Positions 17,790 to 52,290 of a stretch of DNA of 52,290 bases are shown here, one piece after another (the stretch's first letter is position 1; each line of letters opens with the position of its first letter). The stretch lies in assembly GCA_000934665.2 (NCBI GenBank), contig JYFJ02002710.1, positions 1 to 52,290 of the forward strand, written 5' to 3'. The translations under genes and the position numbers were made by a program. This DNA comes from Catajapyx aquilonaris (lineage: Eukaryota). The notes beneath the pieces were generated by a model, which did not search any database, was not told where the DNA came from, and saw only the letters and a list, made by a program, of their open reading frames with translations.

Positions 17790-17871
17790 CGACGAGGATG
17801 GGATTCGAACCCACGCGGGCAGAGCCCATTGGATTAGCAGTCCAACGCCTTAACCACTCGGCCACCTCGTC
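17790..17871 (-). tRNA. tRNA-Ser (anticodon GCT), 82 nt
   Basis: Minus strand GACGAGGTGGCCGAGTGGTTAAGGCGTTGGACTGCTAATCCAATGGGCTCTGCCCGCGTGGGTTCGAATCCCATCCTCGTCG: intact acceptor stem, long variable arm, TTCGAA loop, followed by a poly-T terminator. Confidence 0.97.
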
Positions 17872-30469: not shown

Positions 30470-32651
30470 TTACTTCAAGTACCGATAAGGCACATGGTCA
30501 TCTCGCAGCCGATGTCCGCACACTTCCACCACAAACCACAGGCCGGACACAGCCATACCCATCATCCACAGATAGAAGACGTTCCCAAGTTTGTTGATGT
30601 CCAACAGCCGTCCCTTCCTTACCCGCAGACTGTCCGGGTTGTCCCTCAGCATCTTAAAGTACTTGTTTAGAAAGTTCTGGTAGTTGATCCTGGACTCCAG
30701 TTGCTGGAACAGATGTCCCTGGAACGTCCGCCGGATGGTCCTGTCGTGCACCTGGAAGTGGACGTGATCTCGACCGAAGCAGGGACTGGTGTAGGAGTTG
30801 AGGGGCTTCTCCAGCCAGAAGAGGGTCTGCGGATTGCCAGATGCGTCCATGAAGTAGTGTCGCTCTCGGTTGTACAAGTAGTCGACAAGAAGGCAAGCGT
30901 AGTCTGTAGTCTGGGTGGCCTCGATGCAGTCGTGTATGGAGTTGACGATGGTGGTACTCTCCAAAAGCGATCTGTACAATGTAACTTAACATTCTTTTCA
31001 TACAAAGGCATGTTAACCTACCTGTACACTGGATTGTCCAGTTCCTCCAGGATCAGCGAGAGAGCCACGGACACCATGAATGTACTGCCAACTTCCATCC
31101 GGGATTCCAGGAGCTCTGGTGCGTTTCGAGGCAACCTCTCCGGACTCGGAAAAGTGATGAGAGTCACCAGTCTGGTCTTGTACAGCGTGACCACAATCAG
31201 TGCGAAGAACGACATGCATCCATGGAGCGTCCGGGTTCGGACGTACCGGCTTGCTGGTTGCTCCAGAAATTCCCGGAGCATGAACCGAGCATGGGAGGCC
31301 ACGGAGCGGGATTGGTCCAGAAAGCGAAGAACGACGGAGGTTCCAATCACAGCGAAAAGCAGTGCAATCCACATGCTGGGAGCGTACGGCTGGAATATTA
31401 CGTACCATTTGATGTCCTGTCGGGGCGTCCTGGTTACGAAGCCTCCGTGTAAGTACGCAATTGGGTACAAAAGCGCAACGGCTTTGGCCGATATAGGCGT
31501 AAACAGGATCAGACCTAATAATTGAAATAATTACTATGGTATTTTGCAGTACTTGGAAATAACCTACCTGACATGTCGACTTCTCCGCTAACGACAGCCC
31601 TTGCTATCCCAGACAGGCTTCCGTTTGCCAGCAGCTCCTTATCGCTGATCTCCGGAACCACCACGGTCATGGACATGTTGAACACAGCCTCCCAGTACAG
31701 GACCATCTCCTCTTCAAACGACAACGGCATCTCTTTTCTCTTACGTTTTCTAGCGTCCTGCACATCTATGTCTTCGACGAACCCGACAGCCACTTTCTTA
31801 CCATTCATGTTCATTGGAGGGGATGGAAACAGTTTGTGGCGGTCCATCCCTGCAGAGTACGTAAAGCGATTGAGGGAGTCCTCGCCTGATGGCATACAGT
31901 TGTAGCATACGTTGTGTACGATCATGGCTCTGCTGAAGTGTGAGAGCATCTTGAGGGCTATACCACGAACCGGATCGTCGAGAAGGATCGATGGATGCGG
32001 ATCACTCGTGTGGATCATAACCGGATCGATCAGGTTTCTGAGCATGAAGTGAGCCGCAGTGTGCATGATCAGCTCCGGCACACTGGATATGTTTCGGGCC
32101 AATATCAGGTTGAAAGCGCAGGATCCTCCAGGCCACAACCTGGATCTGAGTTCAGGCGGTTGCGTTCTGAAGGACAGCAGATGCTCCGGTTTCCACACCC
32201 ACGGATAGTCTGAAGGGTCGTACTGAAACGAGTCCATCCGACTGATCACAACAGGTCGGTTGATCCACACCAGCATCTCTTGCAGATGACGCAGAAGTTC
32301 CGGATCATCCATACCCACCCCCAAGGAGCACTCGGGGTAATGCCGCTTCAGGATATGACCTACGACCGATGCGACGGCTGCACTCTCTTTGTCCACGTCC
32401 ACCAGCCGGACATTTCCTGACTAAAGAAGCATCAAAACAACTTACATGAAATTTAAAATAAACAAGTATCGGCTTACCGACAATGTAACGAGCAACAGGA
32501 CGGTTAATGTCGCACCAAACATTTTTGTGCGTGCAATGACTCTCCAAGGCGCATTAGAAGCGAGGCAGCTGCAGAGTTTATTTACCTCAAGTAAACCCCA
32601 ATTTCCGGAGAAAGTCGTGCGCCACAAAACCAAGTAAATGACAGTCTTCAT
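30470..32651 (-). CDS. Divergent ionotropic receptor (IR/iGluR-like) 1, ~637 aa; exons 32651-32586, 32420-31568, 31514-31022, 30971-30470
   Basis: IR hallmarks: FPSPPMNMNGKKV, GSLSGIARAVVSGEVDMS (S1), IFQPYAPSMWIALL (M1), LIVVTLYKTRLVTLIT (M2), LDINKLGNVFYLW...FVVEV (M3); splice phases consistent (1914 nt). Confidence 0.82.
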
Positions 32652-33128: not shown

Positions 33129-33176
33129 GTCACCAGTGACAACACATCTCCTAGGTGCTTGGTGCTGTGTAAACAA
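33129..33176 (+). promoter_or_regulatory. RFX X-box plus forkhead F-box upstream of pseudo-ADAM A
   Basis: GTCACCAGTGACAAC (33129-33143) and GTAAACA (33169-33175); the same pair recurs upstream of gene B. Confidence 0.55.
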
Positions 33177-33200
33177 GCTCATTCCAAAAGGAGACTTGGG

Positions 33201-36200
33201 ATGGCAAGTACTGCTTTGCTCTTTGCTGCTCTTGCGGTTGTCATCTTCGGTACCTTAGGAGCTCCGTACCCAAAGGACTACCACATCGTGTCCACTCATG
33301 TCGTACCGGTAAGGTGGAGCCAGTCTGTGTTGGATTGGATTAGTATGTCCCCTACTCTATGTACAGTACACAAATTGATGAATATTATGCTGGTACTATA
33401 TCGGTCAAAAAGTTCGAGCTCGATCTATGTTCAGCACATTATATGATCGAGTAGATTTAATTGGAAAATTTGCATATTTTTTTATTAAAAAAAATAATCG
33501 GGCGAGTACAAAAAAATTCGGTTTCGAATTAAAACAGTCGCTTATTGTGGACAGCCTACAATAATTAATTAATACATTAATAATTATTAACCAATTAAAT
33601 AATATTTAAAAATCCCGTTCTTTTCCGTCAATCGGAATTGCTGATTGCTATTCATTGTTGATCAAATGTTCATTTCAGTTGATTGTTGGTCGAATATGTC
33701 GATTTCCGTTCATTAATTGTTAATGTAATGATGATTTCTATGGTTAATCGAATGTTGATTTCAGTTCATTGTTAATATCTAATGTTGATTACAGTTCATT
33801 TCCAGAGTCGAATGGTTTGATTTTCATTTGTCAGTCTGATCAGGGAGCATAAATACTACATAAGAGGCGCAAACATTCGATTTCCGCGTCTCTCTGTTTG
33901 GGGCCGTTGCCAACGCTGGCGGCCATCTTGAAGTGTGGGCAACGCCAACGAGGTATAAATAGGGTACAGGCAAAAAATAGGGTCCGCCATCTTTGATTCG
34001 CTCGTGTTCTTGCCGTGTAGTTGCCGTGGCCGCCACAATCATCAAAGATGGCGGACTCTCTTTTTGCCTGTACCCTATTTACCCCTCGTTGGCGTTGCCC
34101 ACACTTCAAAATGGCCGCCAGCCTTGGCAACGGCCCCAAACAGAGAGACGCGGACATCAAAGGCCCCGACAGAAGTTTGCTGGTCTAATGTTTTGATTTG
34201 AGTCCATCGTTATGGCTCGATGTTGATTGTTAATTGGATGTTGGTCCATCCACTTCTGGAGTGCGGTTGACCACAACAAAATTTCAAGTGCTAGCGGTAC
34301 ACTCGAGAAGAGGGGGAAAAACCGCATTTTGTCAGGCAAGCAGGCCACTTTGCACAGTTGTTCCTTCCAGGCCCAACTAATGCTGGATTAGGTTACAATA
34401 TTAATTTGATTTGTTTTAAATGTCCGCAGCACACCACTCGCTTCAAGAGATCCTTGTCGTCACCATCCCACGAGGTAAGTTTCCGTATACCCGGCATGAT
34501 CATGCAGGATTATACAACACCTGCTCATGTCTCATCATCCTCAGACCCGACAAAACCAAGATGAGGATTGTCACTACCTGTCGCTGACCCACGTGGATCC
34601 TGACCTCGACTTCTGTTTCAAGATACATGTAGAGGAAGGCCTGAGGTTGGTCCTGATGGACAAGGAGGGCGAAGAGGAGTTCAAGTTGCCCAACACGCCC
34701 GAGGGGGCATTGGTCAAAGGGTATGCCACGGCCGGGGTCAGGAACTCCTCGGCTCTTGGTTACCTTCACGAGGGACAGTTCTTCGGGCGCCTCGCGGTGC
34801 ACGGGAAGGACTTTGTGGTCGACCATATCCACACGCATGACGCGGAGGGCGCTCCTTTTCCGGCACGTCGGGACCACAAGGCGATAGTGTACCGGCATGT
34901 CGAGCCATCCAACCAAGAAGAGACAGCAGATGATGACGGCAAGGAATTACGGAGGTCCAAGAGGGCAGCTCCAGAGAAGTTCGGGGCTTTCGGGAGGCAG
35001 GCCAAGGAAAAGGTGCCTTTCCATGAGTACAACCCAGTCAGGACCTTCCACCCGGAGAGGTGAGAGTGTATATATGTCACATATATGTCACACAAGCATT
35101 TGCCACACGCCTTTCATATCCACAGGACCTACCCTGTCGTGTGCAGACTGGTGTTCATGGCAGACCACGTGTACTACAAGTTGGTGGCCTCTGGATCGGA
35201 GGGATCCTTGCTGGCCTTCCTGAAGGTCGTCACCTACGCAGTCAACATCCGGTACATCTTCTCGCACGTCAACTACGAACCAGGCAAGCCGAACCCTGGA
35301 ACTAGGTCGGACAACATACGATTCAGAATCAATGATGTAAGTCTCACACCTTTTGTATCTTGAGCGGGGCTCTCGAACCATCAGTTAGTGAGAACTGTGA
35401 GTGTCTTAAAGACTGTGATGACAACACTCTGACTCCTCCTTGCAGATTGTGCTCTTCAAGGATACAGACCAGGAAGGTTATCCGATCACCAGCTCCTTCG
35501 AAGTTACCAACGCACAGTCGTTCCTGGGGGACATGAGCATGGGATTGAACTTGCAGGAGTTCTGTCTAGGGATCGTCGTCTCTGGCCAACTGTTCAAGGA
35601 AGGCCCTCCCGGTGAGTTCCGCATTGTCAATAAAGCAAAGGTCTTCCTTACCTTTTCTTGGCTTGTCAAACAATTGATTGTTTCCAGGTGCCGCCTTCGT
35701 TCCGACTCCGAAGAAGATGACTGGAGGGATATGCGAGGAGACCTTATGGGTTGGAGGCAGGATGATGAGCAGGAACCTGGTTGTCGTCTCGGCAGCCGCC
35801 AGTGAGACGACCCTGAATCCCATGACGAAGACGTCGACCACCATAGCCCACTACATGGCCATAGCCATGGGAGCCAAGGACGAAAAGAGCAAGAAAGAGT
35901 GCCACCCGAAAGGTAAACATCCTATACAAGGCCAGTTAATCCTCTCTGTAATGTCCCTTATTCCGGCTATTCAGACCCGGAGAAGAACGGCTACTATCTG
36001 ATGTACAGCGACGACCAGAGCGGAAACCTCCCGAACCACTGGCTGCTCTCAAACTGCTCGAAGATGGACATCAAGAGCACCTTGAAGGAGAAAATCAACT
36101 GCTTCACTGTTGGTGACACCTCCTACTGCGGTAACGGTGAGTATTATTTTACAGTCCTCCCAAGGGTATAGTCTAACGGTGTCATGTTGGGGCTACCTGG

Positions 36201-39200
36201 CATGATGGGAATCGAAGACATTTTTTTGAAGATGCCATGACGTTGTGTTACTTTGTTCAGGCATCATCGAGCGAGGCGAAGAGTGCGACTGCGGCACTGA
36301 GCACGTCCGGTTCGAGTGTGGGGGTCACAATGACTGTTGCCAACTAGCGTTGCATCCGGAGGAGTGCAAAATCATGTAGGTTGTCGCAGGTCAACTCATC
36401 GCAAACCTATAGGGCCGTATTCAGAGTCAACAACAAGAAGTTAGTGCAGTGCTTTAAACCACGTGACTCAGTTCACTAAGAAAAGTCGCATTCAGAGTCG
36501 CGCTTTAGGCCTAGTGCGGACTTAGTGCGGACTTAGTGCGATCCTACTAAAGCGGTGCACTAAGGCAAAACTTAGTGAACGGGACCCCCTTCTTTTGCGT
36601 CGAACTAACATCGAAATAGGCAGTGGCGGTAGTTTGAAAATAACTTAACAGCTTTTTAAACTGCTGCTAAGCGATTTTTGGCGCTCAATCTTCATTTGTT
36701 TCCCCAGCCTGGGGAAACCAATGAAGATCGTCGCCCTGGGGATTAAATCAACATTAAATGAAGCACGAATGAAGATCGTCGCCCGCCGACCCCAGCTCTG
36801 ATTTTTTTTTTTTCGTAAATTCGTCATTACTAATTATTTAATCATCTAAAATGTGTTTTCAGGTCTATAAAATGTATTAAAATCGAAAAAAACATGAATC
36901 AATATTATTTAAAAGCCCATTTATCGTACAGACGGTGCCCGAAAACCTGCCTGTGAAATTGTGGCAACACCGCGTCTCGCTAGCGCAGTGTTCGAACCTA
37001 GTGCGCTCCTCTAAGTAGGCAGTGAGGCGACTCTGAATGGGAGCAACTAGTGTGGCGCTAATGTGGACCTAGCGTCGCACTACAAGTAGTTAGTGTGAAC
37101 TTTTGCACTGCATTAGCGAACGACTCTGAATACGGCCCATAGAGTTGGCTTGTTGTTTTATTTCCTTGAGAAGACGGATGTGTTGAGTTTGTGTGTGTGT
37201 GTGTCTTTTCAGTATCCCAAAGCCGTGCGCCGACGGAAAGAAGAAGTGCGCGATGTGCGGCGAAGGGAAGAAGGACAAATGCGAGGCAGGCGAAACACCG
37301 TGCGCACAGGGAGAGGTTCCGTGCATACACTGGGCCAAGATGTGCGACGAAGACGAGAAGCCGTGCGTCGCCTGCAACAAACCCGATAGCGTGTCGAAGT
37401 TCTTCCCTCGCGTTTGCACCGAAGCTGAGATCAACGACAATGCCACGAGAGTATGCGACGAGGAGGAGCCGCCGTGCATCCATTTCAGGATGTGCGAGGA
37501 GGAGGAGATCCCGTGCTTCCCGTGCCTGGACATGACCACGACGGACTGCGACAAAGAGATGGAGCTCGAGGGGAAGAAGAGCGGGCTGGCCCGTGAGAAG
37601 TGCGAGAATAACCAGAACCCCTGCAGACCATTGGAAGAGTGCGGGACTGGAAAGAAGTCCTGCAAATTTTGCCCCAAATCCGGAGATTGCAGGGAGAAGG
37701 ACGGCTCGTTCAAGGAAGGCTACTGCGACACGGACCGTTTGGAACCAGAGCTTCCGTGCGCGGTGGACAAGCTGTGCGAGCCTGGCGCCAGTCCCTGCGT
37801 TTTGCGGGAGGTCGCCGCCATGACTAGGGATTGCCCAGACTTCCATCGGGACGAGCCGCCGAATTACGTCCTGTGCCAAAACTACACGTTTCCTTGCAAG
37901 CTTATGCCAGCCTGCACCGATAACTCGAAGGCCTGCGACCCTCCAGATGAGGGTAAGTATTGCCAAGATGGGGTGCCATGCGCCCCGAAGACGGAGGCGT
38001 GCAGATTGTATAGTATACCTTGCCTCGTGGAATGCCCCGAGGGCAAAACCTGCACAGATAATGAGCTGTGCGGCCCTACCAAGAAGCCGTGCGTCAGTCC
38101 CAAGCTGTGCTCATTCGGAGAGAAGCCCTGCACCATGTGCGGCCAGCCAGGGTACCCGGAGTGCTCGACCTGCGACATAATCAAAGCCTGCGGGAGTGAC
38201 ATGGTGCCCTGCGTCGTGAAAAAGGCCTGCGAAGATACGGAGACGCCGTGCAGGTGCGGAAATGGAGACGAAACGTGCGATCAGATCTACGGGCTAGAAG
38301 ATGTTGAACGCGTTTGCTTTCCGAACGAGGTGTCGTGCTTACCAAGGAAGGTGTGCACCGGAAGCGAGGGTCCGTGCAAAAGTGACAGGGTAGATCCGGA
38401 TTGCCCCCCAGCGGCAGATGCTTATGACTGCTCGCATGACGAAATGCCGTGTCAGTGCAAGAAGGCTTGCGATAAGGGCGAGAAGCCCTGCCTGATGAAA
38501 GCTGACTGGGACAAGTGCCAAATAAGCAACACCAGTCTCACCGTCGATGAGCGAAATTGCTCCGATGCGGATATCAGGGAGTGCTATGCCAACACCTACC
38601 CCTGCATTGAAGCGAAGCAATGCAAGGACGACGAGTGGCCCTGCACGAGATGCGGCAAGCCAGGGGAGCCCTCGTGCACCGACGGTGCATGCGTCGCAGA
38701 GTGCTCCAGACGTGCTTGCACAACATCATGCGCGAGACCCTTTTGCAACCAAAGCTGCGAGTTCCGGTATTTTGACACGTCGTTGAACATTCCTAAAGGC
38801 TGCTGGCGTGGCAATTGCCTCAAGGCCTGCAGCGAGGAATCTCGACCATGCTACGACGAATGTTGGGAATGCGACGCCGCCTGCTCGACCGAGGCCTGCC
38901 TGGGAACATGCGCTGATATCAGGAAGATGTGCGATGTAGAATGCTTAGGTGTCGTTCCTGAGGGCGTGTGCGGCAACAAGTGCGATCTGAATCACAAGAG
39001 ATGCGACAAGGACTGCGAGTCCCAGAAGAAGAGCTGCCTCTGGGCTTGCAAACTCTGCGTGAAGGGATGCGAAAAGTGCACGACCTGCTCGATGGAGGAG
39101 ATGCCGTGCGAACACAAGCCGGTGTGCGGGTCCGAGAAGACACCCGAAAAGGACAATTGCTTCCGGATGCCGGTGGCGTGCGTGGTGTGCAACAACTCGT

Positions 39201-41245
39201 GCACCGAATTGGAGGTGACGGAAGGTGGCAACGAGACACGGTGCGACCCAGGGGTCAGATCCTGCGAGGTGAACAAAGACACACACTGCCAGATGCTAAA
39301 GACTTGCGCGGAAGATGAGACGCCGTGTGTGCAATGCGGCGCCGCAGGACAGGAACCCTGCAGTGGATGCGTCGACAAGTGCAAGCCTGGGGAACTGCCG
39401 TGCTTGCGTCCGGTGATGTGCGATAAGAGCGTCGGCCCGTGCTACGTGGCCGGCAGCAGCGACGAGGATAAACCGTCCAAGTGCTTCCAACCAGATGTGA
39501 AGGTGGACAGGGAGTGTTTGACAAACGAGATATCGTGCGTGTGTCCGACGAAATGCGCGGAAGACGAGGAGCCTTGCAACCTCTGCGAGGGATACGAGTG
39601 TAGCTACGTCGAGAACCCGTGCGCTCCGGGCCAGTTCAGGTGCGCCCGTGCGCGCGACTGCGGCGAGACTGAGGTGCCGTGCTGTCAGAAGGTGTCGAAT
39701 AGTTGCAGTGAGGTGAACTGCGGTGCTGCGGAGCTTCCCTGCCTGGAGGAGATGCTGTGCGAAGAGGGGGTTCTTCCGTGCGTGCCCTGCGGCAAGGCGG
39801 ACCAGCCCAGGTGCGGAGACTGCAACATCACGTGCAAGCCGAGCAAGAGGCCCTGCAGAATCCGGCCCATGTGCAGCTTGGAGGAAGCCCCTTGCTGTCC
39901 GATCGATAACACAACGTGCGGAACATCCAAGCTGTGCAATAAAGACGAGGTTCCTTGCAAGCGCATGCCCATGGAGTGCAAGCTGGGACAGGCACCTTGC
40001 AAGGAGGATTGCATGGTCGATGGCAAACGGGATCCATCGTGCTTGCAGTGCGATTTGCTGCCGTGGAGCGAGACGGAGAGGGAAAAGCCTTGCGTGATGC
40101 CGAGGCAGTGCGATCAGTACGAGGTTCCGTGCATACTGTGCGGACGTGAAGGGCAGGACCCGTGCACCAACTGCTCCAAGCCGTGCGACTACGGGGAGTT
40201 CCCGTGCAGGAGGGTCGAGCCGTGCAAAGCCGAAGACCCGTGCGGAGCGACATCCAAGTCGGGCGAGTGCAGGCCGAGCGAGCTGCCTTGCCAGGCATAC
40301 AGGGACTGCCAACCACTAGAAGTCCCTTGCGTCAGGTGCGGAGGGAGCAGGGACGAGCCGAAATGCGAGGACGTGAAGCTGCCCAAGATGGCCTGCGGCT
40401 TTGCGGACCTTCCATGCGTCTCTGTTGTCCAATGCGAGGACGAGTATCCATGCTGCAGCAACGAATCGCTGTGCAAGAGGCAGTGCGACATTGGCGAGGT
40501 GGCGTGCAGAAAGGCGGAGGCATGCGAAGAGCGGCTGCCGTGCGCAGAATGCGACGAGCCGCAGGAATGCTCCGAAGTCCTTCCTCCGGAGTGGGCCTGC
40601 GACTACGACAAGATTCCGTGCCTCCAGGTGATGCCTTGCAACGAGAATGAACAGCCGTGCTTCCCGTGCAGGACCGACGTCGAGTGCTACGCTGTCCTGG
40701 CCCCCTTGGTGCCGTGCAGGGCAAACCAGATCCCGTGCAAGAAGCCCGAAATGTGCGGAAAGGACAGGCCATGCGTGTACTGCAATGCTCCTCGCCAGCC
40801 CATGTGCGGGAAGGGTCAGGTTCCGTGCGCTGGAAACCAGGTTCCGTGCCAGAGGGCCATACCCTGCGACAAATTAGGGAAAGGGAAAGCCCACTGCACC
40901 AAGCCCAAGGAGTGCGAGCTCGACGAGAGGCCCTGCCTCCCGTGCGGGAACATCGGGGAACCGGAGTGCGATGCCAAAAACGATGATTATCGGGTCTGCG
41001 ATCCGAACGAGGTCCCCTGCACCCCGCAGGAGCTTCCGTGCCAGCCCAGTCCAATGGGGAAGGAGAAGCCCCTGTCCCCGTTCTACGCCCTTACCAAAGA
41101 CACCATACGGCAAAGGCCATACGGAGATCAGAAGGAAGGATCGGCGTCTGCTGCCCTGGGCAAGGCCTCGGCTCTCTTTTGGTCATGCGTCGTGGCGATG
41201 GTCCTCACCGGTGGAAACGCCATCGCCCTTGTCCTGCTTAGGTGA
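33201..41245 (+). CDS. ADAM10/17-like pseudo-metalloprotease A fused to a giant Cys-rich repeat ectodomain, ~1859 aa; exons 33201-33308, 34430-34474, 34545-35059, 35126-35336, 35446-35611, 35688-35912, 35975-36136, 36261-36375, 37213-41245
   Basis: Signal peptide; RFKR and RRSKR furin-type sites; CRLVFMADHVYY; FCLGIV; degenerate Zn motif HYMAIAMGAKDE; Met-turn GYYLMY...SGNLPNHWLLSNCS; disintegrin start YCGNGIIERGEECDCG; phase-2 junction matches the 4033-nt exon; hydrophobic C-terminus. Confidence 0.85.
33841..34180. mobile_element. Foldback MITE family 1 (CAGGGAGCAT termini), one end truncated
   Basis: ~130-bp inverted arms; same sequence recurs at 42676-43026 and 44576-45284. Confidence 0.85.
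36412..37138. mobile_element. PIF/Harbinger-like MITE
   Basis: 17-bp perfect TIR GGGCCGTATTCAGAGTC ... GACTCTGAATACGGCCC flanked by a 3-bp ATA duplication; subterminal inverted CATTCAGAGTCGC copies; non-coding. Confidence 0.8.
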
Positions 41246-41478
41246 GACCAGGGTTTAAAGCCGATTTGTTCGAAGAGATTCAATGTTTCTAGTTCTTCGA
41301 TCAATAAAGCGGCTTGATGAGTTCATGTGTCTTTTGAATATCGCGCAAGGACAGCTGTTGTGTTGTTCAACTTTCAATTTGTATTTATTTAATATTGCAC
41401 AGGACATCTTGTTGGTGTCACGTCCTCCCCGTTAAATCTGTAAAGGGAAATATCGAAATATAGGTATGTTGGCCTAAC

Positions 41479-41528
41479 GTAACTAGTGGCAACCCCAATT
41501 TATTGCACAATTGGTGCTGTGTAAACAA
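41479..41528 (+). promoter_or_regulatory. RFX X-box plus forkhead F-box upstream of pseudo-ADAM B
   Basis: GTAACTAGTGGCAAC (41479-41493) and GTAAACA (41521-41527); the 18-bp TTGGTGCTGTGTAAACAA is identical to that of gene A. Confidence 0.55.
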
Positions 41529-41552
41529 ACTAATTACAGAGGAAGAGTCGTG

Positions 41553-44500
41553 ATGGGTTGTTTGTTCTTGGCTGCTCTTTCGGTTGTCATCACCGGAACC
41601 TTAGGAGCTCCGTACCTCAGGGAGTACCACATCGTGTCCACTCATGTTGTACAGGTAGGCTCCGTGTGAATGACACAGACTTCCTCTAATCTTCCTCATT
41701 CTGTCCGCAGCACACCCTGTTTAAGCGATCCACTTCGTTCCACCCCGTAAGTTGCCGGTACCCAGTTGTACAACATGTGACTTAACCAGTCTCTATCAGC
41801 AGGCCTGGCACCACCATGAAGGATGCCACTACCTGTCGCTGACCCACGTTGATCCTGACCTTGACTTCTGTTTCAAGATACATGTAGAGGAAGATCTGAG
41901 GTTGGTCCTGATGGGCAAGGAGGGTCGAGAGGAGTTCAAGTTGCCCAACACGCCCGAGGGGGCATTGGTCAAAGGTTATGCCACAACAGGGGTCATGAAC
42001 TCCTCGATTGTTGGTTACCTTCACGATGGACAGTTCTTCGGCAGCCTCATGGTGAACGGGAAGGACTTTGGGGTTGACCATATCCACACACACGAAGGGT
42101 ATGTTACGGAGGGTGCTCCTTTTCCGGCCCGTCGGGACCACAAAGCGATAGTGTACCGGCTTGACCATATTGTACAGTTGGATGACCAAGAAAGGGTTGA
42201 AGAGCAGACAGATGACCTGAGGAGGTCCAAGAGGGCAGCTCTAGAGAAGTTCGGAACTTTCGGGAATGCGGCCAAAGAAGTGGTGCCATTCCATGGGTAT
42301 AACCCAATGAGGACCTTCCACAAGAAAAGGTGAGTCACACATGTGATGACCACGCAGGTTCACTTATAGGACGACCCTCCACAGGGATTACCCGGTGGTG
42401 TGCAGACTGGTGTTCATGGCAGACAACGAGTACTACAGGTTGGTCTCTGGGTCTGAGGATTCTTTGCTGGCCTTCCTGAAGGTCGTCACCTACGCAGTCA
42501 ACATCCGGTACATCTTCTCGCACATTAACTACGAACCAGGCAGGCCGAACCCTGGAACTAGGTCGGACAACATCAGGTTCTGGATCCATGATGTAAGTCA
42601 AAAAGGCCGGCGTCACGATTTGAGCCTCGGTCGCACGACCAGACGCTTTGCGACCGACAATTGGTGCGACCGAGGCAGGGAGCATAATTATACTACATAA
42701 GAGGCGCAAACTTCTGTCGGCGACTTATGTTCGCGTCTCTCTGTTTGGGGCCGTTGCCAAGGCTGGCGGCATTTTGAAGTGTGGGGAACGCCAACGAGGT
42801 ATAAATAGGGTACAGGCAAAAATAGATGGTTGTGGCGGCCATGGAAACTACACGGGAAGAACACGCGCGAATCAAAGATGGCGGACCCTATTTTTGCCTG
42901 TACCCTATTTATACCTCGTTGGCGTTGCCCACATTTCAAGATGGCCGCCAGCCTTGGCAACGGCCCCAAACAGAGAGATGCGGAAATCGAATGTTTGCGC
43001 CTCTTATGTAGTATTTATGCTCTCTGACCGAGGCTCAAATCGCGAGGGAGTAAACAAGGATATTTTCCCACAAACTACAACCTCCTGCAGATTGTGCTGT
43101 TCAAAGATACAGAAGGTTACCCGATCAAGAAAAGTCCCTACGACGTTACCAACAACGCCCAGTTTTACCTGCAGGAGTTCAGCATGGGGTTGAACTTGCA
43201 GGAGTTCTGTCTAGGGATCGTCGTCTCTGGCCACGTTTTCAAGAGAGGTCCTCCCGGTGAGTTCCTCATTGTCAAAGCAAGGTCTTTCTTACCCTTTTTT
43301 TTTTTTTTGGCTTGTCAAATAATTTTGTTCCAGGTGCCGCCTTCGTTCCGACTCCGAAGAAGATGACTGGAGGGATATGCGAGGAGACGATATGGGTTGG
43401 AGGCAGGATGATGAGCCGGAACCTGGTTGTCGTCTCGGCAGCCGCCACAGCCACGAGTCTGAATCCCGTGAAGAAGACGTCGACCACCATAGCCTACTAC
43501 ATGGCCATGGCGATGGGAGCCAAGAATGAAAAGAACAATGCCACATGCCACCCGAAAGGTAAACGGTCCCCTACACACATACATAAACCCGCAGAAAGTT
43601 TGTTGGTATGTATGTATACGCCCGAAATACCTAACACACTTCTAGAGTGCTGAGAGTGCTGAAACTGGTCACACTGCAGATTCAGGGAAAAGTCCGAAAA
43701 CTACAATTTTTTAAACAAAATTATTGTGGCACAGATTTCGCCGAGAAGGGCTACTATCTGATGTACAGCGACGACCTGGACGGAACCAGGAGGAACCACT
43801 GGCTTCTGTCAGGCTGCTCGAAGATGGACATGAAGAACATATTGATGGAGAAAGCCAACTGCTTCCTTGTGGGGGACACCTCGTATTGCGGAAATGGTCA
43901 GTGTCCTCCAAGGAGAAACGGCAATGCATGTTTACGTGCCCTCACAGATTTTTGAGCCTCGGTCGCACGACCAGACGCTTTTGCGACCGACAAATGCCTT
44001 GTTTTTTGTCGGTCGCAAAGAGTCTGGTCGTGCGACCGAGGCTGATGACATCGTGAGGGCGCTGTAAAAACTGATCTTTACTTCATCATATATGTTACTT
44101 TCATTTGTGCAGGCATCATCGAGGAAGGAGAAGAGTGCGACTGCGGCACTAAGCACGTACCGTTCCAATGCGAGGGTCATACAGGCTGTTGCGAACTAGC
44201 GATGAACCCGAAGGAGTGCAAAGTCATGTAGGTATCGCCTCTTCCACTGTCTCGCGAGTCAACTCATGCGAACCAGATTGGCGTACTTTGTTATACTTGA
44301 ACGCCTTGAGCCTCGGTCACACGACCAGACAAAAAATGGGCCCCCATACAGTCCGTTAAACCAAAGAATGATCTGACGTCACTTACCTACTCCGATCCCT
44401 CCAATCATGTCCTCGGATCGCTCTTCAAGCAAACTACTGCTAATGCTTAAAAAAAATACGGCTAGTGTGACTACGTCAGATCGTTCTTCGACTTTACATG

Positions 44501-47500
44501 CCTCCAGTCGTCTCGAGCCAATTCTTGTCGGTCGCAAAGCGTCTGGTAGTGCGACCGAGGCTCAAATCGTGAGGTCAGGGAGCATATACTACATAAGAGG
44601 CGCAAACATTCGTCGATTTCCGCGTCTCTCTGTTTGGGGCCGTTGACAAGGCTGGCGGCCATTTTGAAGTGTGGGTAACGCCAACGAGGTATACATAGGG
44701 TGCAGGCAAAAATAGGGTCCGCCATCTTTGATGGTTTTGGCGGCTATGGCAACTACACTGCAAGAACCAGGGCGAATGAAAGATGGCGGACCCTATTTTT
44801 GCCTGTACTCTATTTATACCTCGTTGGCGTTTCCCCCACTTTAAAATGGCCGCCAGCCTTGGCAACGCCCCAAACGGAGAGACGCGTACATCAAAGCCGC
44901 CGACAGAAGTTTGCGCCTCTTATGTAGTATATGCTCCCAGATAAGAGGCGCAAACATTCGATTTCCGCGTCTCTCTGTTTGGGGTCGTTGACAAGGCTGG
45001 CGGCCATTTTGAAGTGGGGGCAACGCCAACGAGGTATAAATAGGGTGCAGGCAAAAATAGGGTCCGCCATCTTTGATGGTTTTGGCGGCCATGGCAACTA
45101 CACGGCAAGAACACGCGCGAATCAAAGATGGCGGACCCTATTTTTGCCTGCACCCTATTTATACCTCGTTGGCGTTGCCCCCACTTCAAAATGGCCGCCA
45201 GCCTTATTGGCAACGGCCCCAAACAGAGAGACGCGGAAATCAATGGCGCTGATCGAAGTTCTTATATGTAGCATATGCTCCCTGGTGAGGGCGTGAATAG
45301 CTAGGCCTCATGTGTCACCGTTTGGTGGTGTCATTTCAGAATACCGGAAAGGTGCCTGCCGGACGTGAGGAGCTGCGCGATGTGCGGCGGATGGGACCTG
45401 AGGTCCTGCGATCCTGAGGAGATACCGTGCGCCGAGGGCCGGGTTCCGTGCATACAGTGGGCCAGCAGATGCATGGGCGCCGATCCGTGCGTCGGATGCA
45501 ACACGGACAACGGGACCTTCTTCCGTCGCGATTGCGAGGACAGCGACGAAGGAAGGATATGCAATTCTACGGAGCTACCGTGCATGCGATTCAGGATGTG
45601 CGACGAAGGAGAACTCCCGTGCTTTCCGTGTCTGCGCATGAGCGATGAACAGTGCGACGATAAGCTGGGAGAAAAGAAGGAAAGGACCGGGTTGTCGTAC
45701 GACAGGTGCAGGGACGGACACCAGGTTCCGTGCCATCTCCGACAAGCGTGTCCGCCTGGAGCTAAGAGCTGCATCATGTGCGACATGAGCGACGACAGGT
45801 GCAGGCACCAGAACGGGTCGTTGCTGGAAGGGTATTGCGACACGGACCGATTGGAACCGGAGCTTCCGTGCTTGGAGGAACGGACGTGCGATCCGGACGA
45901 GATGCCATGCGTTCCATGGACGGTGGACCCAAAGGTCCGGAACATGTGCCCAGAGATCGTGGCGAGCCAGTGCCTACCCAACACGCTACCGTGCAGGCTG
46001 ATGGACATCTGCCCAGAAGACGCGGTGTCTTGCAACGGGACGGACAACAACACAGGTCCGTACTGCTACAGAAACAGGCAGTGCACAGCGAAGACCGAGG
46101 CGTGCAAGAAGGGTACGGTCGCTTGCTTCGTGACTTGCCCCGATGGACGGAAGTGCACTCCGACCGACCTGTGCGGTGTGACCAGGAAGCCGTGCGTCAG
46201 TCCCAGGCCTTGCGATAATGACACGCCATGCATCATGTGCGGACAGCCAGGGTATCCCGAGTGCAGCTACTGCGAAAGTCCCCTGGCTTGCAGGCCGGGA
46301 GAGGTGCCGTGCGTGCCGAAGAGGACATGCGAGGACAGCCACGAGCACTGCAAGTGCAGACCTGGAGACGAAACGTGCAGGAAAGTCCCGGGACAAGACG
46401 ATGCCGATCGGTACTGCGAGACGAACGAGGTGTCGTGCTACCACAGGAGAAAGTGCACTGGAAACCTGGGTCCGTGCAGGATGGACGGAGTGCCGGATGA
46501 TCCGGAGTGTCCGGGCACGGACGAGGAATGCGGGGTCGATGAGGTGCCGTGTCGGTGCATGGTTCCGTGCGGGAATCACGAGACACCGTGCGTGAGTTGC
46601 GCTCCCAACACGTACCCTTGCATGGAGCCGAGACAATGCGAGGGCGACGAGTCCGGGTGCGTCAGATGCGGCAGGTCAGGAGAGCCAGCGTGCGTCAGTG
46701 AGAAGTGCAAGAGCCGGTGTTTGGACGACGCATGTTCGTGTTTCAGGCCCAACTGTACGGCCACATGCGGGACCGACTGCGACCTCTCCTGCACGACCCG
46801 GTCCTGCATGGAAACCTGCGGGGACCTCAGGAAAATGTGCGAGGCCGACTGCGCACTGGATGGGTGCGTACAAAAGTGCGGAGTGTACCACGCCAGATGC
46901 AGCAAGGACTGCGAGTCCAAACGTGAGAGCTGCATCTGGGCTTGCAAACTATGCGTGAAAGTGTGCGACAGTAGCAATACCTGCTCGCTCGAGGAGGTGC
47001 CGTGCTATCCGAAACCGAAGTGCGAGTCAGGACAGGCGCCGGAGACACACGGGTGCGTGCAGGTGCCGGTGCCGTGCCAGATGTGCAACGACACGTGCAT
47101 AGGCAGGAAGCGGACTGACCCGGACAACCCGCACGAGGTCAATCCGCACAGATGCGAACCTGGAGTCAGCTCGTGCGAAGTGAACCACAACACCGGATGC
47201 CAGGAGCAGGTCGCGTGCATGGGCGACACGGATCCGTGCGTGTTATGCGGATATCCGGGAGGGGAAGAGTGCAAAGGAGGTGTCGATCATTGCAAACTGG
47301 GTGAGCTGCCATGCGTGCGTCCGAGGGTGTGCACCAATGAGGACACGCCGTGTCATGGAGACAAGTGCTTCCAGCCCGGTGTTGAAACGGATAGGAGGTG
47401 CTTAAAGCATGAGATACCGTGTGTCTGCCCGAAGGCGTGCGAGGGCGATGAGACGCCTTGTACCCCGTGTCGTGGCCATGAGTGTAGGACAGCGAAGAAC

Positions 47501-49183
47501 CCGTGCGTACCGGGGCAGATCTCGTGCGTCCTTGCCCGTGACTGCGAGTATAACGAGGAGCCGTGCTGTCACAAGGGGGCGCCAGATTGCGATGAGAACT
47601 ACTGCGGTACGGCCGAGCTGCCGTGTCTGATTAGGAGACAATGCGAACAGGACGAGACGCCGTGCGTTCGTTGCGGCGACGTGTACGAGCCACAATGCGG
47701 TGACTGCAACGTGACCTGCAAGGCGAACCAAAGGCCATGCAGGATCCGACCCATGTGCGAACCAGGTGAGGTGCCTTGCTGTGATGCCAACGACACGTCG
47801 TGCATGATAACAGGGGATGCATGCAGGGAAGATGAGGTACCTTGTAAGTACATGCCAAGGGAGTGCGAGCTGGGGGAGTCGCCTTGCAAGTACGTGTGTC
47901 CTCCGGGTGCTACAGATTGCGTGGTGTGCGGGAGGATGAAACCGTGCGTGGAGCCTAGACATTGCGATCCGGGCGAGGTACCGTGCATCCTGTGCGGACT
48001 TGAAGGACAGGAGATGTGCACTAACTGCTCGAAGCCGTGCGACTTCGGTAAGTTTCCGTGCAGGAGAGTCAGACCGTGCCATCGGACAAAGCCGTGCGAC
48101 AAGTGCAGACCAAGCGAACTGCCTTGCCAGATGACTGTTGCGTGCAGGGAAGGTATGATCCCGTGTGTACAGTGCGGTGGAAGCTGGCGAGAACCGGACT
48201 GCGATGATGTGAAGCCGCCTCAAATCCCATGCAACTTTTCGACCCTTCCGTGCATACCGGCTGTGCCTTGTACGTACGAGTATCCATGCTGCGATAATCC
48301 AGACAAATGTAAACGAAAGTGCGACTTGGGCGAAGTGTCGTGCGTCATGGCACGGCGATGCGGGAAGGAACTTCCGTGCACAAAATGCAACGATCCGCTG
48401 TCATGTTCCAAGATCAGGCACCCGGAGAAGCCGTGCCGGTACGACGAGGTTCCGTGCATCCAGGCGACGCCGTGCAAACCGGACGAAACTCCGTGCGTCT
48501 TGTGCGAGAAGAGCTCCGTCGAGTGCAAGAACAACTCTGTCGAGTGCAAGAACATCTCTGTCGAGTGCAAGAACAACTCTGTCGTGTGCAAGAACATCTC
48601 TGTCGTGTGCGACAACAACTCTGTCGTGTGCGACAAGAACTCTGTCGAGTGCGACAATGTGCAGGATCCCAAGCGACCCTGCTGGCCCCACGAAATCCCA
48701 TGCACTGTGCCCGAAATGTGTGGTGAAGATCCGCCATGCGTGTACTGCAGCGCTCCAGGCAAGCCCGTGTGCAAGTACCGGCAAAAACCGTGCCGTGGAG
48801 ACCAGGTTCCGTGTCTGAGAGCCACGGAAATCAACGATTCTTGGAAGACCTTCCGTGACTTGGTACTTACCAGATTCTGCGAGTTTGGCGAGACCCCGTG
48901 TCTGCCTTGTGGGGACTTCGATGAACCCGACTGCCTGGATAATCCATGCAAGCCCAACGAGGTCCCATGCATCCGGACTACGTTGCGGTGCCAGCCCGAT
49001 CAAATGGGGTCGAAGAAGCCGAAGTCCAGGTACCAATCACAGACGAGCGACGACGCCATACGAGTGAGGCCATACGGACATCATAACTCGGCATCTGCCC
49101 TGCTGGGCAAGACCCCAGGACTGTGCATCGTGGCGTTGGTCCTCCTCATCCGAAACGAGTTTTTCAGGGTTCAATGTTACTAA
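41553..49183 (+). CDS. ADAM10/17-like pseudo-metalloprotease B (tandem paralog), ~1795 aa; exons 41553-41654, 41711-41746, 41800-42329, 42385-42592, 43091-43256, 43334-43558, 43735-43896, 44113-44227, 45340-49183
   Basis: Same nine-exon structure and phases as gene A; Zn motif YYMAMAMGAKNE; GYYLMY Met-turn; CGNGIIEEGEECDCG; 3844-nt Cys-rich terminal exon with hydrophobic C-terminus. Confidence 0.85.
42676..43026. mobile_element. Foldback MITE family 1 with 7-bp TSD, nested in a family-2 element
   Basis: CAGGGAGCAT...ATGCTCTCTG termini; ACCGAGG duplicated at 42669-42675 and 43027-43033. Confidence 0.88.
43952..44043. mobile_element. Short palindromic element family 2 (GAGCCTCGGTCGCACGACCAGAC...); further copies at ~42618-43040 and ~44306-44568
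   Basis: ~40-bp inverted arms AGCCTCGGTCGCACGACCAGACGCTTTTGCGACCGACAA / TTGTCGGTCGCAAAGAGTCTGGTCGTGCGACCGAGGCT. Confidence 0.8.
44576..45284. mobile_element. Tandem dimer of foldback MITE family 1 (44576-44940 and 44941-45284)
   Basis: Outer termini CAGGGAGCAT / ATGCTCCCTG flanked by GTGAGGT and GTGAGGG; the second copy lacks its first ~16 bp. Confidence 0.85.
48513..48657 (+). repeat. 21-bp coding tandem repeat (SVECKNN-like, ~7 copies) in gene B
   Basis: CTCTGTCGWGTGCRASAASAW units; absent from the equivalent position in gene A. Confidence 0.85.
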
Positions 49184-49331: not shown

Positions 49332-50255
49332 TCAAAACATTTCGTCCGAGGGCGAAGACCTGATTATCACTACAATCAGTACTATCGCAATCACTATCGT
49401 CATGACCATGAGCTTCCTCCTCTTGAACACGTCCTTCACCCCATTGGCACACATCTGGCCGCAAGAAGGCTTGACAGGTACGTCCTCCATGTCCTGGTGA
49501 GACAAAGACAATGCAATCAGCGTAAGGTACAGACAACTTATGCCGGACATACCTGTTGAGGATGATGGTTTCCTTTTGTGGTTGGTCCTGTAATCATCGG
49601 TATCCTTTGCTCTTCGTCGTTTGAGCCCATGACGATGACTTGTAGGGGTGGGTCAGTGCTGGAACAGCAGATAATAAAGATGGTTATTACACGCTCTAAC
49701 AGGAAGACTTCCAGGAGTACAGTAGCAGCCACGGCATGTCTTGGAGGTGAAAGTGACATACCTGGCTGCCCTCTTCATGTCTTCCAAATGACTCAGTATG
49801 CACTCAGTCACCTCGGCGTCTGTCGATACTTGAACTGCCGTCTTCCCATTGTTGTCTCCCACTTCGCAACCAGCTCCAGATTCCAGGAGGGACCGGACCA
49901 CCTCCAGGTGTCCGTACTTTGCAGCAAGATGCAAGGGCGTCTCTCCGTCGTTGGTCTGTCCATCGACATCAGCTCCTGATTGAACTAGAAGGTAGCACAC
50001 GTCCTGGTATCCACCCTTGGCAGCCTCATGCAACGCCGCGCGTCCGTGGCTATCCCGCGCGTCCGGATCGCCCCCATTTTGTAACAGCACTTCGCACACC
50101 AAAATGGCTCCAGTACCAGCCGCAACGCTCAGTGCAGTTGACCCTATACGACATCGTTCATTCACATCAACTCCTAAGTTCAACAGCTCCTTAGTCCGTT
50201 TCAGGTTGCCCGTTTTAGCAGCGACATGGAGATCGTTCACTCGTGTCTCATCCAT
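49332..50255 (-). CDS. Tail-anchored ankyrin-repeat protein, ~253 aa; exons 50255-49762, 49658-49553, 49493-49332
   Basis: Four to five ankyrin repeats (LHVAAKTG, GSTALSVAA, GRAALHEAAKGG, GETPLHLAAKYGHLEVVRSLL); C-terminal KRRK followed by LMVMTIVIAIVLIVVII; splice phases consistent. Confidence 0.82.
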
Positions 50256-50644
50256 CGTTAGACTGTCCAAATAACCGTGATTCGGACCTTATCATCGGTA
50301 TGGTTCTCATATCGCATGAACTCTCGGACTTTGATAGGAGGTTATAGTGTGAAGCAGGCGTTGGGAGCACATGTTCGAATCATGTCGACTGCGCAACATT
50401 CAAAAAAAAAAATTATGAACTTAAATAAGCTGTAAAATGTAATTAATCAACAATCTGCACATTGGTGTAGGTCGAGTTCCAACAAAGTTATCACAGATAG
50501 TTTTTACCCTTGAAAGACTTGGATCAACAGCTGATACGTTGCAACACGATAAAACGCTGTTTATACACACGCATCATTCTCTTATCAGACAAGTTGGAGT
50601 GCAATGACTACAGACGTACGAGGCCGCAAAAGTGGCTCGAAATT

Positions 50645-52195
50645 TTACAACAAAAAATCGTGTCTCGAGGTGTCACGGTGGCATCTATTACAAGATCCTT
50701 CGAAGACAAAGACCATACCGGACACCCCAAGACAGACGAGCCAAAGGTAGAAAACGTTCACCAACTTGTTCATGCTCAGTGCGCTCGTTACATCAGCATG
50801 TCCCTTGTAGGCCATAGTCTTATAGTAATTGCGCAAGAAGTTCCGGTGGTTCACTGCCGATTCCATCTGCTGGTATATATGTCCCTCAAACGTCCGTTGC
50901 AAGTCCCTGTCCTGTCCCACAAACTGGATGCTGTCCCGTCCGTAACTGGCGCCCATGTAGGCGTTCAAAGCCTTCTCAGGCCAGAACGACGTTGTGGGTT
51001 GTCCTTTAGAGTCCAGGAAATAATCACGCTCCTTATTGTACAGAAAGTTAATCAAAAAGCAGGCGAAATCGTCATGTTGTGTCCGATCCATACATCCTCG
51101 TCTGGTAGGTGTGATTATACCTTTCTTCAACACATTGTGGTACAACGGATTGTCGAAGTTTTCTATCAGTAACGAACAGGCTATGGACATCATCAAGGTA
51201 CCACCCCACTTCATACCGGAGTAGTACAGCTCCTTGACTGTATGAGGAAGAACTTCAGGAGCTGGAGTGGTGATGAACTGCACCAGTTTGGTCCTGTATC
51301 CGCATACTACAATCAACGAAAAGAGAGACACAAGTCCTCTAAAAGCAAGGGCAGAGTTGGGGTACACAGATAGGACCGGTTGGTCGATCAGTTCGCGCAT
51401 CAGGTCCGTCATGTTGGAGCACACTGAGCCCATACCGGATAGCCAGTACAGTACACAGGACGAGACAACGATGGACACGAACAGGGCTGTCCACATACCG
51501 ACAGTGTACGGTTGGACAATCACGTACCATTTGGTATCCGGTCTGGGTGTACGGGTGACAAACCCTCCGTGCATGTACATGACCGGGTATGTCAGCATGA
51601 CTGCTCTTGAACTCACATCCGTGTACAGTATGAGAGAAGATATGTCCACATCACGAGACACAATACCTCGAGTGATACCGGCCAGACTTCCGTTGGGATA
51701 CAGTTCGGTTGTGCTCAACGCAGCGGCTGTCACAACCAGAGTGATGTTGAACAATTTGGCACTGTACAACATCGCTTCCTCTTCGTACGTCATATGTCCG
51801 TCGTTCATCTTCCGGTTCTTAACGTCCTCCATATCCACGTTGTCCAGGTACGCCATGACCATCCGCTGACCATTCATGTCACGTGGAGGCTCAGCAAAGA
51901 GTCCATCTTCAGTAGGCTGGTTCAACGAAGTGTGTCCATCATTGCAGTAGTAGCAAACACTATGAAAGATCAACTGTCCAGTAGTGTGATCATATCTTGT
52001 CAGCAGCTTCATCCTGATTCCTTGAACCGGATCACGGAGTAACAACTGTTCAGGGTTGTCATGTCCATGGACATGGATCATGACAGGATCGTGCATGTTT
52101 CTGAACCTAAAGTGTGCTGCAGTGTGCATGATCAGTTCAGGTACACCGGACATGTTTCTGGATAATATCAGGTTGAAAGCGCAGGATCCTCCAGT
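50645..52195 (-). CDS. Divergent ionotropic receptor 2, paralog of IR1; 5' part missing or outside the window
   Basis: Uninterrupted >500-aa ORF sharing GGSCAFNLIL..N.S.VPELIMHTAAHF, GGFVTRTPR.D.KWYVI.QPY, FW.EK.LN.Y and RTF.GH with IR1. Confidence 0.8.
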   Translation of the reverse strand, partial: TGGSCAFNLILSRNMSGVPELIMHTAAHFRFRNMHDPVMIHVHGHDNPEQLLLRDPVQGIRMKLLTRYDHTTGQLIFHSVCYYCNDGHTSLNQPTEDGLFAEPPRDMNGQRMVMAYLDNVDMEDVKNRKMNDGHMTYEEEAMLYSAKLFNITLVVTAAALSTTELYPNGSLAGITRGIVSRDVDISSLILYTDVSSRAVMLTYPVMYMHGGFVTRTPRPDTKWYVIVQPYTVGMWTALFVSIVVSSCVLYWLSGMGSVCSNMTDLMRELIDQPVLSVYPNSALAFRGLVSLFSLIVVCGYRTKLVQFITTPAPEVLPHTVKELYYSGMKWGGTLMMSIACSLLIENFDNPLYHNVLKKGIITPTRRGCMDRTQHDDFACFLINFLYNKERDYFLDSKGQPTTSFWPEKALNAYMGASYGRDSIQFVGQDRDLQRTFEGHIYQQMESAVNHRNFLRNYYKTMAYKGHADVTSALSMNKLVNVFYLWLVCLGVSGMVFVFEGSCNRCHRDTSRHDFLL

Positions 52196-52290
52196 AGTGG
52201 GGGCTCTTAGCGAGATGAAGGGGACAAGTTGGACAAAAGCACCAAACTTTGCATGGAGTTTTGTTTGGTCCTATGCTAATAGTTTTTGGT

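Follow-up and report, generated by a model that had tools for sequence, protein, structure and literature searches.

In a 52,290-nucleotide (nt) stretch of the genome of Catajapyx aquilonaris (assembly GCA_000934665.2, contig JYFJ02002710.1, positions 1 to 52,290 of the forward strand; hereafter the window), we analysed a tandem pair of genes that would each join a diverged, catalytically inert head, related to the sheddases ADAM10 and ADAM17, to a single giant exon encoding ~1,300 residues of cysteine-rich repeats. We consider it probable that their products are fused, non-catalytic, extracellular proteins with a binding or structural role. The pair had been noticed in an earlier reading of the letters made without database searches (the sequence-only reading), whose two nine-exon genes, stop-free long frames and last splice junctions were reproduced here. 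The head carries the signature of ADAM10/17 descent in its Met-turn exon, both copies have replaced the residues projected onto the zinc site, and the giant exon is under purifying selection, with nearly all of its cysteines retained.

Gene models

The two paralogues lie head to tail on the forward (+) strand, gene 1 at 33201-41245 and gene 2 at 41553-49183. Splice sites were set by side-by-side reading of both copies under the standard genetic code, and the resulting models are open throughout, with products of 1859 residues for gene 1 (coding sequence 5580 nt) and 1794 residues for gene 2 (5385 nt). All 16 introns are of the GT-AG type, with phases 0,0,2,0,1,1,1,2 common to both genes, and the last junctions fall at 36375/37213 and 44227/45340, where, as first proposed, the models join the head in matching phase to one giant cysteine-rich exon in each copy. 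Stop-free + strand frames span 37187-41245 (1352 codons) and 45305-49183 (1292 codons); the giant exons hold 1343 and 1280 open codons, a length far beyond chance in both cases, as 500 shuffles of either exon produced no open frame above 290 and 280 codons, respectively. Short conserved blocks 5' of each frame share 81-84% nucleotide identity between the loci and keep their order, and a tblastn search of the window with gene 1 returned no further copies outside the two genes.

Exon 1 of gene 1 (33201-33308) holds the ATG and a hydrophobic, signal-peptide-like N-terminus (19-residue Kyte-Doolittle windows above 1.6 at residues 1-6) and ends at the donor CCG/GTAAGG. It is followed by a 15-codon mini-exon in phase 0 with an RFKR string (exon 2, 34430-34474; gene 2 counterpart 41711-41746), an M12B-propeptide-like exon 3 (34545-35059) with an RSKR convertase-type site at 34953-34964, a metalloprotease-like core in exons 4-6 (35126-35336, 35446-35611 and 35688-35912; HYMAIAMGAKD at 35849-35881), the Met-turn region and metalloprotease domain end in exon 7 (35975-36136), and the start only of a disintegrin domain in exon 8 (36261-36375), which closes on the donor CAT/GTAGGT. 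Exon 9 (37213-41245) has 1343 codons with 199 Cys, and its C-terminus (41138-41242) consists of a small-residue stretch and a 23-residue hydrophobic tail ahead of the stop at 41243-41245. In gene 2, exons 1-4 occupy 41553-41654, 41711-41746, 41803-42329 and 42385-42592, exons 5-8 occupy 43091-43256, 43334-43558, 43735-43896 and 44113-44227, and exon 9 (45340-49183; 1280 codons, 195 Cys) ends in a weaker hydrophobic tail at 49085-49180; RSKR lies at 42223-42234 and the zinc-site string YYMAMAMGAKN at 43495-43527.

An ADAM10/17-like head

Domain searches were run exon by exon on contiguous translations of the window, and exon 7 gave the clearest answer. For gene 1, 21 of its 22 PDB matches (expectation value, E, up to 1) were to ADAM17 or ADAM10, with best E of 0.0012 and 0.0036, respectively; for gene 2 the same two enzymes made up 21 of 25 matches (best E 0.018), the other four being Arl2. 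No other reprolysin, ADAMTS or snake-venom enzyme was among the exon 7 matches of either copy, and those to the Met-turn region spanned E 0.0012-0.04 over both. Exon 8 of both copies matched Pfam Disintegrin at E 0.018 and 0.05 over profile positions 1-26 of 75, with bit scores (16.2 and 14.8) under the gathering score of 35.1. Features of exon 3 in the ESM Atlas scored 0.95, with 29 of 30 matches in the Pep_M12B_propep (PF01562) set, which is a lead rather than an alignment; exon 3 alone had no ADAM match in Pfam hmmscan or PDB, and neither did exons 4, 5 and 6, even as two-sequence profiles. RSKR stands at the expected propeptide boundary (residue 188 in gene 1, 187 in gene 2), and the region resembling a metalloprotease (M) domain shows 79% identity between copies with a ratio of nonsynonymous to synonymous substitution rates (Ka/Ks) of 0.46.

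Taken together, the head is best described as a probable, strongly diverged ADAM10/17 relative, its parts collinear with an ADAM and some of them supported by search tools. The ancestry suggested by the sequence-only reading was thus upheld by exons 7, 8 and 3, but its domain details fared unevenly: the metalloprotease fold is recognisable at the Met-turn exon and not in exons 4-6, the disintegrin is indeed truncated but shorter than the ~45 residues claimed (exon 8 encodes 38), and the HMMER check it called for gave a weak, sub-threshold Disintegrin match and no Pep_M12B_propep match on exon 3.

Loss of the zinc site

At the place of the metalloprotease signature HExxHxxGxxH, gene 1 reads HYMAIAMGAKD and gene 2 YYMAMAMGAKN. 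Residue 3 of exon 7 aligns to residue 429 of ADAM17 in an 824-residue PDB chain that we take to be the full-length protein, so that its numbering is presumably native, and ungapped back-projection from there, through the split codon and the 74 in-frame residues of exon 6, puts exon 6 residues 54-64 on ADAM17 405-415. The zinc ligands of ADAM17 are His405, His409 and His415, and the catalytic base is Glu406 (PMC12491190). At positions 405, 406, 409 and 415, gene 1 has H, Y, I and D, and gene 2 has Y, Y, M and N; the motif Gly is the sole residue of the signature kept in both copies, and exon 6 contains one H/Y-x6-G string only. On this projected register both copies would have lost two or more of the zinc ligands along with the catalytic Glu, in agreement with the original claim that they are catalytically dead.

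The giant cysteine-rich exon

The last exon is 14.8% Cys in gene 1 and 15.2% in gene 2, with ~10% Pro and an acidic isoelectric point (pI) of 4.8 and 5.1, respectively. Its commonest Cys-Cys spacings, 7 and 6 residues, make up 99 of the 198 intervals of gene 1 and 106 of the 194 of gene 2, which confirms the density of roughly one Cys per 5-7 residues given in the sequence-only reading. A profile seeded on the C-x2-C-G sites (eight in gene 1, nine in gene 2) of this exon found 21 matches in gene 1 and 24 in gene 2, of which the seed matches are true by construction and the non-seed matches range from E 1e-9 to 0.4. Alignment of the 28 better-scoring of the 45 matches gave five invariant and two nearly invariant Cys columns and the consensus PC-x5-C-x3-E-x-PC-x2-CG-x6-C-x7-C-x5-PC-x5-C. 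Judged by these hidden Markov model matches, the last exon is built from a degenerate 8-Cys module of ~54 residues. The central stretch of the exon is enriched in C-x3-C and C-x4-C, and gene 2 carries an in-frame tandem array of seven 21-nt units (48476-48678, + strand), each encoding seven residues that include one Cys and an N-x-S sequon; since gene 1 lacks the array, it represents a recent repeat gain.

An origin of the repeats as an expanded disintegrin domain was considered and set aside: no Disintegrin match (Pfam, E up to 0.1) occurs in the giant exon, and the module profile starts no earlier than the final residues of exon 8. AlphaFold2, one of the checks that the sequence-only reading proposed, returned a predicted local distance difference test (pLDDT) score of 29.9 for a 441-residue stretch aligned with its paralogue and 49.6 for a single module aligned with the 28 repeats, both too poor for a comparison of folds.

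Divergence and selection between the copies

Identity between copies is 78-89% for exons 1 and 3-8, 67% for the mini-exon 2 and 64% for exon 9, while introns 2, 3, 6 and 7 show 47-67% identity and intron 5 is exceptional at 87%. At the protein level the giant exon has diverged to 50% identity, yet Cys is conserved at 188 of 193 aligned positions, compared with 41% identity at other positions. Ka/Ks is 0.43 for the first eight exons (bootstrap 95% range 0.33-0.57), 0.47 for the giant exon (0.40-0.56) and 0.59 for the giant exon once its Cys columns are taken out (0.49-0.69), and none of 1000 bootstrap replicates exceeded 0.77 in any of these three partitions. Purifying selection acts on both halves, and the giant exon is a real, constrained coding exon.

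The synonymous rate (Ks) between copies is 0.35 for the ADAM part (33201-36375 vs 41553-44227) and 0.88 for the giant exon (37213-41245 vs 45340-49183). Together with the 87% identity of intron 5, this contrast suggests either gene conversion of the 5' half or faster mutation in the repeat exon.

Evidence for a single transcription unit

The giant frames open just 26 nt (gene 1) and 35 nt (gene 2) 5' of strong acceptors, and in neither copy does a start codon within the frame lead into a signal peptide, so they cannot stand alone. A search of intron 8 for ATG-started exons of at least 15 codons with a consensus phase-2 donor found none in either gene, and the intron 8 sequences of the two copies are not alignable with each other. 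GC content at third codon positions (GC3) is uniform along each gene, at 0.73 in the ADAM part and 0.75 in the giant exon of gene 1, and 0.69 and 0.72 in those of gene 2. As a cysteine-rich protein with a hydrophobic C-terminus must be secretory, and the sole signal peptide lies in exon 1, a single transcription unit is favoured; that each gene is one such unit is our best reading, and we infer from these features that the exon 8-9 junction is used in RNA.

An AATAAA signal lies 58 nt 3' of the gene 1 stop, and ATTAAA signals lie 3' of the gene 2 stop. The TGA stop of gene 1 also falls inside AGGTGAGA, a consensus donor (41238-41250); gene 2 has no such feature, and no conserved exon was seen downstream of this stop-spanning donor.

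Protein ends and proposed function

Hydrophobic windows of 19 residues occur at the N- and C-termini only in both proteins, which leaves neither with an internal transmembrane segment. Gene 1 ends in GSASAA, the spacer LGKAS, 23 hydrophobic residues and R; gene 2 ends in an 11-residue hydrophobic run and RNEFFRVQCY; and the SASA-x-LGK stretch ahead of the tail is kept in both. A small-residue site, a short spacer and a terminal hydrophobic stretch are the usual layout of a glycosylphosphatidylinositol (GPI) signal. By inspection, the GPI-like signal of gene 1 appears convincing and that of gene 2 weak or uncertain. The proposal of a hydrophobic end with no cytoplasmic tail therefore holds for gene 1 but not for gene 2, where ten mixed residues follow the run. 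No Pfam family, and hence no membrane-proximal or Cys-rich ADAM domain, was recognised on the giant exon.

On our preferred reading, splicing would join the inert head to a ~1,300-residue acidic region of ~20 degenerate 8-Cys modules, and the protein would enter the endoplasmic reticulum via the signal peptide of exon 1, probably form ~100 disulfides and presumably be cut by a convertase at RSKR. A C-terminal anchoring signal of putative GPI type would end the protein, which, unable to cut substrates, would then most likely be displayed on the cell or released by shedding into the matrix. A long, acidic stalk of repeats, braced by disulfides, would carry the inert M domain at its distal tip, and the dead protease domain and the repeats could serve as binding surfaces, much as non-catalytic ADAMs act as receptors or adhesion molecules. 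A more specific proposal, which we put forward tentatively and hold to be rather less likely than the general one, is that the pair represents an undescribed family with an ADAM10/17 pseudoprotease head on a lipid-anchored stalk of ~20 new 8-Cys modules, acting as a recognition molecule (gamete, self/non-self or pathogen) or as a decoy for the partners of true sheddases. The fast divergence of the stalk (50% identity, with repeat gain) while its disulfides are kept is the pattern expected of a surface recognition molecule.

Searches for relatives

Whole giant exons matched no Pfam family at E up to 0.1, and none of the known cysteine-rich modules in Pfam (EGF, furin-like, LDL-A, TSP1, disintegrin and others) gave a credible profile match; the best result for single modules was Ldl_recept_a, in 2 of 28 modules at E 0.007. 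In PDB the module profile had no match better than E 0.21. A word-indexed search of 5.8 billion proteins with the giant exon returned 716 candidates, none significant, a full HMMER scan (1184 residues) of 1.84 billion representatives returned none at E up to 0.001, the ESM Atlas gave a best score of 0.76 and no family, and none of the pattern matches from two scans of metagenome contigs (8 and 77) was confirmed. The exon shuffling proposed in the sequence-only reading would need a source for the giant exon, and the libraries searched yielded neither donor nor relative. Exons 3 and 7, despite their apparent ADAM kinship, also found no relative in the word-indexed protein library, and neither the 5.8-billion nor the 1.84-billion library returned the window's own giant-exon protein. 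Because both the ADAM exons and this protein were missed, the silence of the libraries cannot establish novelty among animal proteins: the search for relatives advocated by the sequence-only reading came back empty, but from libraries insensitive to this gene. In the portions of the literature that full-text searches brought up, we found no description of an ADAM10/17-like pseudoprotease with a giant cysteine-rich extension. That these genes combine a non-catalytic ADAM with a new C-terminal architecture is plausible but unproven.

Alternative readings

Several points count against the interpretation of a fused, non-catalytic surface protein. The ADAM assignment depends on a single exon seen in both paralogues, a lead from one language model and collinearity: the Pfam matches of the head exons score below the gathering threshold, and exons 3, 4, 5, 6 and 8 singly have no ADAM match in PDB. 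The zinc-site register comes from projection without gaps and not from an alignment. The exon 8 donor, CAT/GTAGGT in both copies (36373-36381 and 44225-44233), is the weakest of the 16 and contains an in-frame TAG, which makes possible a truncated soluble isoform of ~517 residues if intron 8 is retained, and intron 8 of gene 1 holds three ATTAAA signals. The tail of gene 2 makes a poor signal, whether for a GPI anchor or for a transmembrane helix, the repeats defied structure prediction (pLDDT 29.9 and 49.6), and the binding role of the protein is putative. The features of intron 8 would be accounted for if the two halves were separate products, the ADAM-like gene stopping at the TAG just inside intron 8 as a ~517-residue soluble, decysin-like pseudoprotease and the cysteine-rich exon belonging to another transcript or a minor isoform. 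The retention of that TAG in both copies, the three ATTAAA signals, the rank of intron 8 as the longest or second-longest in each gene and the Ks of 0.35 and 0.88, which would give the halves different histories, speak for this arrangement, but it leaves a giant frame that has no signal-peptide start codon and that, in both copies, opens directly at a good acceptor, with no alternative first exon found in intron 8. Moreover, gene 2 lacks a poly(A) signal in intron 8, GC3 does not differ between the halves, and the phase-2 match has been retained in both copies although the downstream protein has diverged by 50%. We regard separate products as improbable. Decay of one or both copies into pseudogenes, with the long frames as leftovers, would fit the loss of the catalytic motif, the diverged C-terminus of gene 2 and a Ka/Ks of 0.43-0.59 that is relaxed relative to typical housekeeping genes; it is very hard to reconcile with 5.4-5.6 kb of coding sequence per copy with no stop or frameshift, intact splice sites in all 16 introns, a Ka/Ks that never rose above 0.77 over 1000 bootstrap replicates and 188 of 193 aligned Cys conserved, and we give it almost no credence.

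The alternative that comes closest to the fused surface protein concerns its destination. Here the product would be a secreted component of a matrix or coat (egg envelope, cuticle, cement or mineralised layer), cross-linked via its cysteine-rich acidic repeats, instead of a membrane receptor. Such a role would suit ~15% Cys, ~10% Pro and a pI of 4.8-5.1 over 1,250-1,300 residues, the weak C-terminal anchor signal of gene 2, and rapid divergence with repeat gain of the kind seen in the 21-nt x7 array of gene 2. It sits poorly with the well-formed C-terminus of gene 1 (small residues, spacer and 23-residue hydrophobic run) and with the conservation of SASA-x-LGK before the tail in both copies, and we think it fairly unlikely, if somewhat less so than separate products. 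A fused, non-catalytic, extracellular protein and this matrix alternative overlap, and our degrees of confidence in them do not sum to one.

Genomic surroundings of the pair

The interval between the stop of gene 1 and the ATG of gene 2 is only 307 nt long (41246-41552); the promoter of gene 2 must be very compact, or the two genes are co-transcribed. About 42 nt just 5' of each ATG are conserved between copies (33159-33200 and 41511-41552). A palindromic element of ~340 nt that resembles a miniature inverted-repeat transposable element, with arms of ~100-190 nt that are 90-100% complementary, occurs in gene 1 intron 1 (33840-34180), in gene 2 intron 4 (42676-43027) and twice in gene 2 intron 8 (44575-45260), and is largely responsible for the differing intron lengths of the two genes.

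The pair is flanked on either side by long open frames of the minus strand (30470-32420 and 50645-52270); these share near-identical peptide stretches, have hydrophobic segments and matched no Pfam family, and they look like another pair of orphan paralogues. Further neighbouring features lie at 2265-4141, 6740-8647, 13058-13393 (-), 17790-17871 (-), 18369-18980, 19512-20393 and 49653-50288 (-). Among them are three ankyrin-repeat genes, one of these at 49.7-50.3 kb, as well as exons for C2H2 zinc fingers and for replication factor C, one exon of a Cu/Zn superoxide dismutase, a tRNA gene and a tandem repeat array that stays open in several frames. This gene set points to a compact, animal-type genome with short introns.

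Comparison with known systems

The pair resembles ADAM10 and ADAM17 (Kuzbanian/TACE), the sole credible PDB matches of exon 7, in its apparent order of signal peptide, M12B-like propeptide, basic convertase site, metalloprotease-like domain with Met-turn and disintegrin start. It differs from them in that the zinc and catalytic residues are replaced, the disintegrin stops after about a third, and 1,300 residues of orphan repeats stand where a membrane-proximal or Cys-rich domain and a cytoplasmic tail would be, neither of which is recognisable here. Non-catalytic ADAMs such as ADAM22 belong to another ADAM branch and keep a transmembrane helix and tail; to our knowledge, non-catalytic ADAMs are known only from that classical branch, with a standard ectodomain. 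If our reading is correct, the combination of a dead ADAM10/17-type head with a new cysteine-rich repeat represents a different reuse of the sheddase scaffold and enlarges the repertoire of extracellular domains by a new disulfide-rich module, and the paralogue pair offers a tractable system for the role of a protease fold after catalysis is lost. Annotation of the same architecture in related species would make the finding an ordinary lineage-specific gene family.

Three described proteins bear comparison. ADAM22, which works with a ligand, keeps the M-domain backbone of catalytic ADAMs, and non-catalytic ADAMs of its type keep a full disintegrin, Cys-rich and EGF ectodomain (PMC4885070). The genes described here share with them the loss of the active site and the apparent retention of an M-like scaffold, but they are ADAM10/17-like and have lost the full ectodomain, transmembrane segment and tail. 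ADAMDEC1 has a truncated disintegrin, no transmembrane or cytoplasmic parts and an Asp in place of the third zinc His (PMC5174729), and gene 1 likewise has Asp at that position; unlike these genes, which would also have lost the Glu and the second His and which carry a giant extension, ADAMDEC1 keeps HExxH and is a small, soluble, proteolytically active enzyme. Similar in design, by analogy rather than kinship, is the sea-urchin egg bindin receptor EBR1, in which an M12B propeptide and reprolysin head precede a very long array of extracellular repeats that evolve fast between species and function in recognition (PMC13672419). EBR1 is ADAMTS-like, keeps its zinc signature and has repeats of the TSP1 and CUB types, whereas the Catajapyx genes would set a dead ADAM10/17-like head before a very long array of repeats matching no known family.

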